Source of the DNA: an archaeon | GTDB lineage: Archaea > Asgardarchaeota > Thorarchaeia > Thorarchaeales > Thorarchaeaceae | Assembly: GCA_024275415.1 (NCBI GenBank) | Contig: JAJRZD010000124.1 | Location: forward strand, 1-10,118 | DNA length: 10,118 nt | Direction: 5' to 3' | Shown here: piece after piece, positions 3,250-10,118 of the stretch | Layout: each line of letters begins with the position of its first letter | Position numbering within the stretch: the first letter of the stretch is position 1 | Program-made: the position numbers and the translations under genes | Notes under the pieces: model-generated | Told to the model about the DNA's origin: nothing | Databases searched by the model: none | Seen by the model: only the letters and a program-made list of their open reading frames with translations

Positions 3250-3292
3250 AATATAAGTGATTTCTATAGGTTGTTCGACAATAGTAAATAGA
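3250..3292. promoter_or_regulatory. Divergent promoter region between sui1 and the radical SAM gene
   Basis: Minus strand CTTATATT (3257-3250) preceded by purine-rich TAGAAA fits BRE-TATA for sui1. Plus strand AGTAAATAG (3283-3291) is a weaker TATA candidate about 30 nt before ATG 3317. Confidence 0.45.
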
Positions 3293-3316
3293 CCGCATGT
3301 AACGTGTTTCTTAGAT

Positions 3317-4903
3317 ATGACTGAACGAATCCTTATCACAGATGCTCTAAGCGCAGGAAGCGGCAAACGAAGGAGTTCCCGAGACTCGATAGGGTGCGGC
3401 CCAAGAGCAATCGCCGGAGTGCTTGAGAAGGCAGGACTGGGCTGTCGGATACAACGAGTGGAAACCCTCCTCAAGTTTCCAAAATCTGTACGGAATTATG
3501 ATCATCTAGCGATTAGTGCGATGACTATGGATTATCCTGTTGTGTTTCAAACCATTTCTCTATGGAGAAGGTCAAAACCCCGTGGAAAGATTCTCCTTGG
3601 TGGTCCTATCGCCTCAGACTCTGAGCGCGTCCTGATGGCCCTGAAGCCTGATATTCTTGTCGTAGGAGAGGGAGAGGGGACATTGAATGACCTAGTTTCC
3701 CAAGGTTATCCGAACGAGAACATTGACTTGTCTGAGATACATGGTATCGGGTTCATTCATGACAAAGCCCCCGTACTAACACCACAGAGACCTCTTTTGG
3801 ATCAATCTGTGCTTTGGGACACGTATCCCCCCTCTACCACCCGAATCATTGACTACCCTGTATATGAGGCGAGCAAAGTATACGTTGAAACTGTACGGGG
3901 GTGTTCGAATTACAAGCGAACAACTCTCACATTGCCTGATGGACGGGCATGCTCTGAATGTGGCATTTGTGATTCTGAAACCCTGCCAGATCGACTGACC
4001 TGCCCTGAAGACATTCCTCCCGGGTGTGGGTTTTGTAGTGTTCCTGCAGTGTGGGGCCCTCCTCGTTCGCGACCAGTCGAGTCCATTCTCGAAGAGGTGT
4101 CTGCGCTCCTTGATCTTGGAGTCCATCGCATTGTGCTAGAAGCCCCTGATTTTCTTGACTATATGCGTGGCCCGTTCCCAATGACTGACCCCTGCCAACC
4201 TACCGCAAACTTGGCGCAGATTACTTCCCTGCTTTCTCTAATAATGAAACTTCCAGCGTTTTCCGAGGGAACTGCACATCTGTCAATCGAGAACATGAAG
4301 GCATGCCTTTTCACCGAAGATGTGGCACAAGCACTCTCAGATGTGCTGGACTCTTCTTCTCCAAACATAGGGCTTGAAACTGGTTCAGAGGAACATTCCA
4401 AAGCAATAGGGAAATGCGGGACTCCCCAGAATGTCATCGATGCAGTACGACTTGCAAAGCACTATGGCATGACTCCCTATATCTATTTCATCTATGGTAT
4501 GCCCGGCGAGAGCGAACAGACGATCGCTGAGTCCATTGAAGTAATGAAACAGGCTCACGAAGCAGGGGCCGAGCGAATTATCCTGTACGGCTTTAGACCA
4601 TTACCTCGCTCCGCCTTTGCAGAGTTTCCATCTCCAGAACACAGGGATCCATTGGGCGAACGATTACGAGCCGAAGCGGCACGGATAAACAGGCTGCGAA
4701 AGGATGACCTCGTTGGGAAAGTCCTTCGTGGAATCGCAGCCGAGCCATCTTGGGAACGACATGGCTATACAATGGTCTACCCACTAGGTGAAGGGCCAAT
4801 AATGACCGTACAGGGAGGCTTCTCCCCCGGAACATTGTTAGACATTGAAATAACCCATGTGCTCAGCCCTGGGCTGGTTGGAGGGAAAATAATCTCATCT
4901 TGA
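3317..4903 (+). CDS. Radical SAM protein with B12-binding-like N-terminal domain and TRAM-like C-terminus; function unknown
   Basis: N-terminal Rossmann-like segment (DHLAISAMTMDY...ILLGGPIAS...DILVVGEGE), ETVRGC...GCGFC, RSRPVESILEEV, GLETGSE, YFIYGMPGES, and a C-terminal beta-rich tail (GTLLDIEITHV..GLVGGKII). Start ATG 3317 preferred because 3257 lies in the promoter region. Confidence 0.85.
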   Translation: MTERILITDALSAGSGKRRSSRDSIGCGPRAIAGVLEKAGLGCRIQRVETLLKFPKSVRNYDHLAISAMTMDYPVVFQTISLWRRSKPRGKILLGGPIASDSERVLMALKPDILVVGEGEGTLNDLVSQGYPNENIDLSEIHGIGFIHDKAPVLTPQRPLLDQSVLWDTYPPSTTRIIDYPVYEASKVYVETVRGCSNYKRTTLTLPDGRACSECGICDSETLPDRLTCPEDIPPGCGFCSVPAVWGPPRSRPVESILEEVSALLDLGVHRIVLEAPDFLDYMRGPFPMTDPCQPTANLAQITSLLSLIMKLPAFSEGTAHLSIENMKACLFTEDVAQALSDVLDSSSPNIGLETGSEEHSKAIGKCGTPQNVIDAVRLAKHYGMTPYIYFIYGMPGESEQTIAESIEVMKQAHEAGAERIILYGFRPLPRSAFAEFPSPEHRDPLGERLRAEAARINRLRKDDLVGKVLRGIAAEPSWERHGYTMVYPLGEGPIMTVQGGFSPGTLLDIEITHVLSPGLVGGKIISS

Positions 4904-4968: not shown

Positions 4969-5112
4969 ATGGTCTACATATGCCATTCATGCAAATATGA
5001 AGTAACCTCCGAAGGTCTAAAAGCGCTACCGGGCGTGAAATGTCCTTTCTGTGGAGGCCGTATTCTATACAAGATCAGACCCCCAGTCGTGAAGCGTGTT
5101 AAGGGCGTATAG
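4969..5112 (+). CDS. rpo12: DNA-directed RNA polymerase subunit Rpo12 (RpoP), 47 aa
   Basis: MVYICHSCKYEV...VKCPFCGGRILYKIRPPVVKRVKGV: YxCxxC...CPxCGxRILxKxRP Zn-ribbon signature. Real start ATG 4969, not 4900. Confidence 0.93.
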   Translation: MVYICHSCKYEVTSEGLKALPGVKCPFCGGRILYKIRPPVVKRVKGV

Positions 5113-5117
5113 ATAAT

Positions 5118-5216
5118 CTATCCCTTGAATATCAACCAAGCAGCTGCCACTATCGAGGCTATGAATAGGAATATGAAGAGCCCAGAGATGATTTTCTTCT
5201 TGTAGGCATATCTCAT
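5118..5216 (-). CDS. Unannotated 32-aa single-pass membrane micro-protein (MRYAYKKKIISGLFIFLFIASIVAAAWLIFKG)
   Basis: Hand-translated: ATG 5216-5214 to TAG 5120-5118. SD GGGGTGA (5228-5222, containing the get3 stop) is 5 nt upstream. The ORF fills the get3-rpo12 gap to within 5 nt at each end. Basic N-terminus, 22 uncharged mostly hydrophobic residues, then KG. Confidence 0.72.
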   Translation of the reverse strand: MRYAYKKKIISGLFIFLFIASIVAAAWLIFKG

Positions 5217-5221
5217 CGTGT

Positions 5222-6181
5222 TCACCCCTTGTTTAGGATTGCTCCTAATTCTGATAGTCCCTCAATCCCTCGGATCTCGTTATCGAATAGAGGCACTTCC
5301 GTGATGTTCATGTCGTTGAATAGGTCTCGGATGTCCCTAAGATTCCGTTGTTGCATGTTTCTTCTTGAGGAACAGAATTTACATTCAAGATTCTCAGGTA
5401 TAAGTTGATTGATGATGATGTTTGAGGCCGGGATGTGCCATGCATTGAGACTACCAAGAAGCCTCTGGGTTTCAAACACTGCCATGGCCTCTGGTATCGT
5501 GACGACTACAAACTGGGTCGTGTCAGGATCTGAGAGTTCGATTCGTGCCATTCGGATTTTGTCTTTTGTATTCTGAAGCATCTGCCATGCTGTTTCTTCC
5601 TGCTCTCCTCCGCCTCCTAACATCGAACGAAGCCCTGCCATCATGGGACCAAGTCTTTGACGCAGGGTGAGCACTTTCCCAAGCCAACTGTCCAGTAGGT
5701 CTGGCAATTCGAGGAGTTTGAGAGTGTGCCCAGTAGGTGCCGTATCAAATATCACTCTATCATATGATGAGTCCTCTATGAACTCCAAGATCTTTCCGAA
5801 AGCCATTGCTTCATCCGAACCAGGCGGTGACATACCGCTCATGTCCCCTAAGAGATTGGATGCCATCTGCATGTCAGGCCCCGCAGCACCGCTTCCCAGC
5901 GTTTCTTGAAACTCCTGCATACCTTTCTCCGTATCTATCTCCATGCCCCACAGATTATCAAATCCTTTCACCGGGACTGGCTCACCACCAGACAGATCCT
6001 GAGCAAAGCTGTCGCTAAGACTATGAGCTGGGTCTGTGGAAAGGACAAGGGTTCTGAGACCTCTCTTTGCAGAAAGCACTGCCAATGCGCCAGCACAACT
6101 GGTCTTTCCTACTCCACCCTTGCCACCGCTCAGAATGAATTTTATCGTGTCGCTCTCAACTATCTCTTTTATGGTCTTCAT
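5222..6181 (-). CDS. ArsA/Get3 (TRC40)-family SIMIBI ATPase, Get3-like
   Basis: Deviant Walker A GGKGGVGKT, switch I STDPAHSLSD, switch II DTAPTGHT, Met/Gly-rich helical subdomain, CxxC (CKFC) near the C-terminus, A-loop VPLFDNEIRG. Single ATPase domain of 319 aa. Confidence 0.93.
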   Translation of the reverse strand: MKTIKEIVESDTIKFILSGGKGGVGKTSCAGALAVLSAKRGLRTLVLSTDPAHSLSDSFAQDLSGGEPVPVKGFDNLWGMEIDTEKGMQEFQETLGSGAAGPDMQMASNLLGDMSGMSPPGSDEAMAFGKILEFIEDSSYDRVIFDTAPTGHTLKLLELPDLLDSWLGKVLTLRQRLGPMMAGLRSMLGGGGEQEETAWQMLQNTKDKIRMARIELSDPDTTQFVVVTIPEAMAVFETQRLLGSLNAWHIPASNIIINQLIPENLECKFCSSRRNMQQRNLRDIRDLFNDMNITEVPLFDNEIRGIEGLSELGAILNKG

Positions 6182-6212: not shown

Positions 6213-6220
6213 CTATTAAG
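6213..6220 (-). promoter_or_regulatory. Possible TATA box (CTTAATAG) for get3
   Basis: About 32 nt upstream of ATG 6181 in the 59-nt udp-get3 gap, with no obvious SD; consistent with a short-leader transcript. Confidence 0.35.
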
Positions 6221-9478: not shown

Positions 9479-9769
9479 CTAAGCAGTGCGTCTAATGATA
9501 TGATATCCAAACTTTGTCTTGACGGGTTCATTGGTCATTTGTCCTGGGTTCAAAGCAAAAGTAGCTTTTTCGAACTCCGGCACCATGCTTCCCTTCCCAA
9601 AGAATCCAAGGTCTCCACCTTTTTTCTTCGATGGGCATGTGCTATGGAGCTTTGCCATTTTTGCAAAGTCTTCTCCTTCCTTTATCTTGCTGATAATTTC
9701 TAGTGCCTTACTGTGTTTCTCGACCAGAATATGACTTGCGCGAACTTTTCCCGCTTTACCTTTTGCCAA
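9479..9769 (-). CDS. ppiC: Single-domain parvulin (PpiC/Par10-type peptidyl-prolyl cis-trans isomerase), 96 aa
   Basis: [17 protein letters not shown]...[17 protein letters not shown] and [11 protein letters not shown]. Start TTG 9769 with SD GAGGTG (9782-9777) 7 nt upstream; the ORF-track extension to 9937 overlaps the divergent gene. Confidence 0.93.
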
Positions 9770-9910
9770 TATATGACACCTCATGATGTGGTTATTACTG
9801 CTCTCTGCAAAGGTCAAGTTAAGTCTGTCCAAATGGCTTTCTTGCCATAATGTAATTGTTTTATCGGTAGATGAACAATTACTATACCTTGGGAAGGTGT
9901 GATGTGCAGG

Positions 9911-10118
9911 ATGAAAGTAAGTCTGTTTCATGAACATGGCGGTCCGGATGTGTTAGAGTATACTGATTTTCCTACTCCTAGTCCAGAGCCGGATCAGGTG
10001 CTGGTAGAAATAAAAGCAGTGGCGCTAAATCATCTCGACCTTTTTGTCCGAGGTGGCATTCCGGGAATGACAGTAGAAATGCCCCACATTCTCGGAAGTG
10101 ATATCTCTGGTGTAGTCA
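9911..10118 (+). CDS. 5' part of a medium-chain dehydrogenase/reductase, quinone-oxidoreductase-like, partial
   Basis: Hand-translated [49 protein letters not shown]...[12 protein letters not shown], a GroES-like MDR N-terminus. NHLD and GSD replace the catalytic-Zn Cys and GHE motif. SD-like AGGTGTGA upstream. Runs off the window. Confidence 0.88.

Follow-up and report, generated by a model that had tools for sequence, protein, structure and literature searches.

Post-translational capture and insertion into the membrane is the situation that defines a tail-anchored (TA) protein. In the GET pathway, Get2/CAML is the receptor subunit for the targeting ATPase Get3 (TRC40) and the partner of the Oxa1-superfamily insertase Get1/WRB, and small single-pass accessory subunits of larger membrane complexes are familiar from SecG/Sec-beta, YajC, KdpF, CydX and AcrZ. 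Here we describe a microprotein that resembles each of these in part. It is the product of a small open reading frame (sORF) of 32 codons lying directly behind get3 in a Thorarchaeaceae genome of 3.5 Mb; the window analysed, which is the entire 10,118-bp contig JAJRZD010000124.1 (G000:C111), carries both genes. The sORF is conserved and under purifying selection, and its product belongs to a new, nearly always unannotated family of microproteins coupled to a canonical Get3. Binding of TA proteins in vitro is reported for archaeal homologues of Get3 (Sherrill 2011 and Suloway 2012, as cited in PMC6593721). The natural clients and the membrane receptor of archaeal Get3 represent a gap, one that in the Asgard archaea bears on the origin of the eukaryotic GET pathway.

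The microprotein is like TA proteins such as Sec61-beta/Sbh1, the SNAREs and RAMP4/SERP1 in having one very hydrophobic transmembrane (TM) helix at its extreme C-terminus and, as far as can be predicted, a basic cytosolic side, an external tail of 2–3 residues and a post-translational mode of insertion. Unlike them, it has no cytosolic domain beyond eight residues, and its helix could just as well be called an N-terminal signal anchor. Sec-beta and SecE are both much longer, and we found no sequence relationship between the microprotein and the TA families. It also shares an operon with the targeting factor, whereas we found no such case described for eukaryotic or archaeal TA clients.

With Get2/CAML the microprotein shares a basic cytosolic N-terminus adjoining its membrane anchor, and both are linked genetically to Get3. 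Get2/CAML, however, spans the membrane three times and binds Get3 through a long N-terminal helix that carries an RERR-type motif, compared with about eight cytosolic residues and one TM helix here, and the microprotein could at most be a functional analogue of that receptor subunit, not a member of its family. The small accessory subunits (SecG, YajC, KdpF, CydX and AcrZ) are similar in size, in their single helix and possibly in having one conserved face, as well as in being co-transcribed with a larger partner gene and frequently omitted from annotation. Those subunits, however, are encoded beside the membrane complex that they join, whilst the partner gene of the microprotein encodes a soluble targeting ATPase.

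The get3–microprotein locus

The elements of the locus, with the basis for each, are as follows.

5118–5216, minus strand: microprotein gene, 32 codons plus a TAG stop (sequence, orthologues, codon statistics and profile match)
5222–5228, minus strand: Shine–Dalgarno (SD)-like GGGGTGA containing the get3 stop, 5 nucleotides (nt) before the microprotein ATG (sequence)
5222–6181, minus strand: get3, encoding a single-domain Get3/TRC40-type ATPase of 319 amino acids (aa) (P0002; Pfam, NCBIfam and motif evidence)
4969–5112, plus strand: rpoP, encoding RNA polymerase subunit P/Rpo12, convergent; a context gene outside the claimed module
6214–6219, minus strand: putative TATA-like box TTAATA, 33–38 nt upstream of the get3 ATG (read from the window sequence alone)

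The microprotein ORF starts with an ATG at 5216–5214 and ends with a TAG at 5120–5118 on the minus strand, giving a 32-aa translation of about 3.7 kDa (P0001). The TGA stop of get3 (5224–5222) lies within the GGGGTGA and is followed by a 5-nt spacer (5221–5217) and then the microprotein ATG. At the other end, the convergent stops of the microprotein gene and rpoP are separated by 5 nt (5113–5117). An earlier note on this DNA, made from the sequence alone, had described the position of the ORF, the overlap of SD and stop and the 5-nt gaps on both sides, and a check of the sequence found every one of these details to be correct. The TATA-like box, if functional, would possibly yield a short-leader bicistronic get3–microprotein mRNA.

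Conservation and translational coupling of the sORF

A Get3 query retrieved 40 relatives, of which the 23 same-family get3 loci were used for frame and codon tests. A 32-codon ORF follows get3 directly at 23/23 of these loci and its frame is free of stops in all 23, whereas four of the other five frames contain stops in 12–23 of the 23 sequences and the remaining one, forward +2, in six. Nucleotide entropy at the three codon positions is 0.92, 0.62 and 1.57, with the third position varying 2.5 times more than the second. Synonymous sites are near saturation (mean pS 0.79 against a pN of 0.31), and dN/dS has a median of 0.20 across the 74 pairs that are not saturated. The start codon is ATG at 16 loci, TTG at four and GTG at three.

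The same picture emerges from a larger sample of 80 named get3 loci, 72 of which are Thorarchaeota loci with sufficient downstream DNA. The sORF is present at all 72, yielding 71 distinct microprotein sequences, 55 of them exactly 32 aa in length. Because the frame is open, the codon positions are biased, dN/dS is low, an SD precedes the start and the gene occurs as a single copy beside get3, we conclude that the sORF is a translated gene under purifying selection and not a chance ORF. The earlier note had proposed just such a hidden microprotein, a single TM helix preceded by a basic N-terminus, and had suggested looking for an equivalent sORF with low dN/dS downstream of get3 in relatives; that search proved positive and the proposal is borne out.

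The relationship with get3 is equally regular. At the 23 same-family loci the sORF starts between −4 and +14 nt relative to the get3 stop, with an ATGA-type stop/start overlap at five of them. Across 61 distinct Thorarchaeota upstream regions, 59 (97%) contain a match of at least 4 nt to the SD core, mostly 7–10 nt before the start, compared with a background of 20% at control positions. This arrangement argues that the microprotein is made from the get3 mRNA by translational coupling, as the earlier note had supposed. Fusion of the two products by read-through of get3 into the sORF was also considered and rejected: the offsets from get3 stop to sORF start occur in all three frames, and a profile search of representative proteins found the motif in no long protein.

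The microprotein

Residues 1–8 of the microprotein form a basic N-terminus (MRYAYKKK), which is conserved in the family as R/K at position 2, K/R at position 6 and K8, the last in 70 of 71 sequences. There follows a hydrophobic run of 22 residues, I9 to F30, with a Kyte–Doolittle (KD) value of 2.83 over 15 residues, and then two terminal residues, K/R and G/P in the family and KG in the window. An AlphaFold2 model places residues 3–31 in one helix (pLDDT 89.6). By the operational definition of a TA protein, the microprotein has one TM helix within about 30 residues of its C-terminus and no other TM helix. That helix is also N-terminal, however, and resembles a Sec signal peptide, albeit one whose residue 26, in most sequences, suits a −1 site poorly. 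With four Arg/Lys residues on the N-terminal side and one on the C-terminal side, the charge asymmetry predicts an N-in topology that would leave 2–3 residues outside.

Within the helix, Ser21, which lies in the middle, is invariant in the 71 distinct sequences, with strong conservation also at L17, F18, A25 and L28. The conservation signal is highest at a period of 100–110 degrees, the periodicity of a helix, which is suggestive of a conserved face made up of F14, L17/F18, S21, A25 and L28. The A20–S21 and A24–A25 residues make small-xxx-small pairs, a pattern typical of helix–helix packing.

The upstream ATPase

The get3 product matches Pfam PF02374 (1e-89) and TIGR00345 (4e-89, above the cut-off). 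It has a deviant Walker A motif (GGKGGVGKT, residues 19–27), a DTAPTGHT switch at 146–153 and a CxxC motif, C267-K-F-C270, both Cys residues of which are invariant in 35 Asgard Get3 sequences. Met-rich stretches at about 101–121 and 178–189 mark a putative groove-forming insert. The protein has just three Cys residues, with no tandem duplication or metalloid-binding Cys triad. Its best solved relative is Chlamydomonas ArsA1 (9e-130), followed by the archaeal Get3 structures 3zq6 (2e-79) and 3ug6 (8e-76) and the yeast/fungal and human Get3/TRC40 proteins (about 1e-64); E. coli ArsA (2e-35) is far behind these factors and the score against the ArsA model TIGR04291 is 129 bits, against a cut-off of 650. 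Judged by its sequence, the ATPase is of the TA-targeting Get3/TRC40 type and not an ArsA.

Elsewhere, the same genome encodes two tandem ArsA/Get3-like paralogues (G000:C67:24996–26945), about 32% identical to the window’s Get3. This tandem pair recurs in several relatives.

Homology and distribution

Searches of curated families found no relative of the microprotein: there is no Pfam match at E ≤ 0.01 and no NCBIfam match, and the profiles of Sec61-beta, SecE and other curated small membrane families do not match it either. The earlier note had recognised no homologue, and this still holds. A profile search of 1.84 billion representative proteins found 11 proteins of the same kind, 32–36 aa in length, and no fusion of the microprotein to a larger protein. 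Of six exact microprotein sequences, one is present in a 15-billion-protein collection, without a name. The best look-alike in the Atlas scored 0.78, too low to be of use, and a literature search found no paper describing a small ORF coupled to an archaeal get3. Standard annotation thus misses a gene under clear purifying selection.

To follow the family across Asgard archaea, a 32-position peptide profile (A2) was run against 301 Asgard genomes. There is one strong match per genome in 73 of the 76 genomes of the window’s family and, again once per genome, in the sole other family of the order. The match in the window (5121–5216, 1.2e-16) is single copy; a further match lies at G242:C174:29745–29840. 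Every match with a recorded get3 position adjoins get3. The get3 gene is itself present in 73 of the 76 family genomes, and the three that lack it (71–80% complete) also lack the sORF, if a single weak match in one of them (G200), which falls within a 908-aa frame, is disregarded. A fourth exception, G164, has a get3 that terminates at the contig end. Outside the order, matches are weak and lie inside large proteins only.

In G245, a genome of the window’s family assembled as a single contig of 2.6 Mb (77% complete), the queries matched neither get3 nor the sORF, which could reflect joint loss or incompleteness of the assembly.

Inspection of get3 3′ flanks at 60 additional loci in other Asgard families extended the distribution beyond the reach of the profile. 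In family f12, a coupled sORF of 34–39 aa is found at 16/16 loci; its product has a basic N-terminus, a single TM helix, G-S without exception at positions 20–21 and a Pro-rich end. This sORF is separately coding (entropy 1.00/0.39/1.48, dN/dS 0.20), and its profile aligns with the Thorarchaeota profile over the full length, matching up the invariant Ser residues (hhalign 91%, E 1e-6), a score to be taken cautiously, since TM segments inflate it. Similar coupled sORFs encoding a basic N-terminus and a TM helix follow get3 in families f15 (3/3 loci) and f6 (1/1 locus).

The sORF-bearing families occupy at least three separate places on the Get3 tree (f1+f2, f12 and f15/f6), so that at least three gains or losses are required; Get3 identity between these clades is about 45–50%. 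Across families, get3 is the only constant neighbour of the sORF. The convergent rpoP is common to the Thorarchaeia (f1, f2) and f12 but is not found in f15 or f6, and the gene upstream of get3 varies even within a genus, the PNP gene in that position being common only to the window and its closest relative. Within Asgard archaea, to which the survey of 3′ flanks was confined, the pairing of get3 and sORF is found in the Thorarchaeia and three other families; it is not a general archaeal feature. What the earlier note imagined as a two-gene archaeal GET module was, as a pairing of genes, found in these groups but not in 16 other sampled Asgard families that have the same Get3.

Throughout the Thorarchaeia, get3 and the sORF keep their synteny with rpoP and with the neighbouring radical SAM gene. 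G243 (family f28, labelled Helarchaeota at NCBI) has two copies of the Get3 orthologue (C98:3459–4403 and C68:3362–4303), with a TM sORF after neither.

A candidate client of Get3

What might the microprotein do? A 32-aa chain has not yet emerged from the ribosomal exit tunnel at the end of its translation. As the chain is shorter than the tunnel it cannot be targeted co-translationally, and both capture and insertion must be post-translational. From this and from the genomic context we favour, with about equal weight for and against, the reading that the microprotein is an obligatorily post-translational, TA-type protein that is a dedicated client of Get3 and a small membrane subunit in its own right. 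Get3 translated from the shared message would take the hydrophobic helix into its Met-rich groove and deliver it to the membrane, probably to one of two DUF106/EMC3-type insertases for which the genome has genes; once inserted, the helix may pack via its possible Ser-containing conserved face against itself or against another membrane protein. Dependence on Get3, topology and membrane partner are all inferred in this scheme. At the least, the family provides a specific, conserved and genetically linked 32-aa candidate client or partner of Get3 in at least four Asgard families, and one that is accessible to chemical synthesis and to trials with recombinant Get3 and DUF106 insertases.

Two attempts to draw on further components were uninformative. 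A complex prediction with a Get3 dimer, two ATP, Zn and the microprotein scored 0.01 and is used neither for nor against any reading. Get1/CHD5 (PF04420) was unmatched in the genome, but control genomes were equally unmatched. As for the insertases, the two DUF106/EMC3 genes of the window’s genome lie at G000:C100:55430–55927 and C34:6168–6647. Many Thorarchaeota genomes carry one such gene on the get3 contig, at a nearly constant distance of about 27–30 kb (for example, G007:C6, 38655–39125 against get3 at 66927–67868; also G011:C1, G008:C1, G012:C3 and G156:C4); this is long-range synteny and not an operon.

Several points weigh against a dedicated client. No such sORF was found at 40 get3 loci from 16 other Asgard families, among them Odin-, Loki-type, Hel- and Frey/Jord-archaeal genomes; since the Get3 orthologue occurs without the sORF in most of the Asgard lineages sampled, Get3 has no general need of it. 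A comparison of Get3 residues between sORF-bearing and sORF-less families found only weak separating columns (M103 and V45), and the copy number of DUF106/EMC3 (two in the Thor and Loki-type families, one or two in f12, one in f15 and f6) shows no correlation with presence of the sORF. Very short, very hydrophobic proteins can, moreover, insert unassisted or via YidC-type insertases alone. A generic client needs no invariant Ser, so part of the function lies elsewhere. The helical-periodicity test behind the putative conserved face is only marginal (permutation p = 0.049). Finally, Get3 binding, membrane insertion and expression, on which the proposal rests, are all candidate properties read from sequence.

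The most serious competitor, though clearly the less probable of the two, is that the microprotein serves, as an accessory subunit or regulator, some membrane complex that has nothing to do with Get3, and merely shares the get3 mRNA. The invariant mid-membrane Ser and the small-xxx-small pattern do point to a specific helix–helix partner in the membrane, the Get3 orthologues of the 16 sampled families manage without the sORF, and long-range synteny around get3 (rpoP, the radical SAM gene and the DUF106 gene) is in any case a feature of Thorarchaeota. Such hitch-hiking sits poorly, however, with the retention of adjacency to get3 (overlap or a gap of at most 14 nt) in at least three deeply separated clades in which the other neighbours differ, and with the finding that all profile matches in the 301 genomes for which a get3 position was recorded adjoin get3. 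A 32-aa TM protein would, besides, need a post-translational route of insertion whatever complex it joined.

We think it improbable, if worth bearing in mind, that the microprotein is instead a minimal one-helix tether or receptor, whose basic N-terminus (R2, K/R6, K8) recruits cargo-loaded Get3 and whose Ser-containing TM face docks on a DUF106/EMC3-type insertase. Were this so, it would supply the membrane-side component that an Asgard GET pathway has so far lacked, and the archaeal relatives of eukaryotes would have a minimal forerunner or functional analogue of Get2/CAML. Conservation of the basic cluster is high (K8 in 70/71), coupling to get3 would fit a coordinated production of both proteins, DUF106/EMC3 insertases are present in the genome and we found no archaeal Get3 receptor described in the literature. 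Only about eight residues would be available in the cytosol, however, whereas the helix of Get2 is over 30 residues long; the positive-inside rule explains a basic cluster next to a TM helix equally well; and there is no match to Pfam GET2 or to any other family. The lack of co-variation with DUF106 copy number and the absence of the sORF from most Asgard lineages count against a tether as well.

Unlikelier again is that the peptide acts as a regulator or placeholder, sitting undelivered in the hydrophobic groove or chamber of Get3 in order to stabilise or gate it. Production from the same mRNA as Get3 and a form that is essentially a bare hydrophobic helix would suit such a role, but an invariant Ser and a possible conserved face would not be expected of a ligand for a non-specific, Met-lined groove. 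The strong charge asymmetry, moreover, resembles the topology signal of a membrane-inserted protein, and most Get3 orthologues work without the sORF.

We give marginally less credence still to a signal-peptide precursor or remnant, that is, either the leftover 5′ end of a gene for a secreted protein or a Sec-type signal that is cleaved behind its Ala-rich stretch to release a peptide of 6–7 residues. The earlier note had itself allowed for a remnant, and the resemblance to Sec signal peptides on which the idea is based is genuine: the weak profile matches outside the order are to N-terminal signal or anchor sequences of large surface proteins, the first 22 residues of a 688-aa f15 protein (P0017) are strikingly like the microprotein consensus, and A-A-A precedes W27 in the window’s microprotein. 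A remnant, on the other hand, would not be expected to persist as a stand-alone ORF, mostly of 32 codons, with a dN/dS of about 0.2 across more than 70 distinct sequences. Nor does cleavage fit well: the hydrophobic run of 22 residues is of TM-helix length, position 26 is I, V or L in 41/71 sequences, a poor −1 residue for signal peptidase, and what follows the putative site is hydrophobic and conserved and belongs to the predicted helix. There is also no downstream reading frame, as rpoP converges 5 nt away.

P0017 itself is encoded at L205:143–2206 (minus strand) in G069:C47, with orthologues in G041:C147 and G061:C55, and matches the profile with an E of 9e-6 per genome. It is a surface-type protein, rich in Asn-x-Ser/Thr, that lacks Pfam domains and has KKK directly behind a C-terminal TM helix.

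That the sORF is a chance ORF or non-coding spacer, for which might be cited its length below usual gene-calling cut-offs and the occurrence of only one of six exact sequences in the protein collection, is refuted by the conservation, codon-position, SD and frame evidence, and an Rfam scan of the window gave no match.

Other genes in the window

The radical SAM gene beside rpoP occupies positions 3257–4903 and encodes a B12-binding protein. Towards one end of the window, at 213–608 on the plus strand, lies a gene for a 131-aa Roadblock/LC7-domain protein (PF03259, 2.5e-8), which adjoins genes for methionine aminopeptidase, TFB and aIF1/SUI1. Towards the other, at 9479–9937 on the minus strand, a 152-aa PPIC-type (parvulin) peptidyl-prolyl isomerase is encoded (PF00639, 3e-23).

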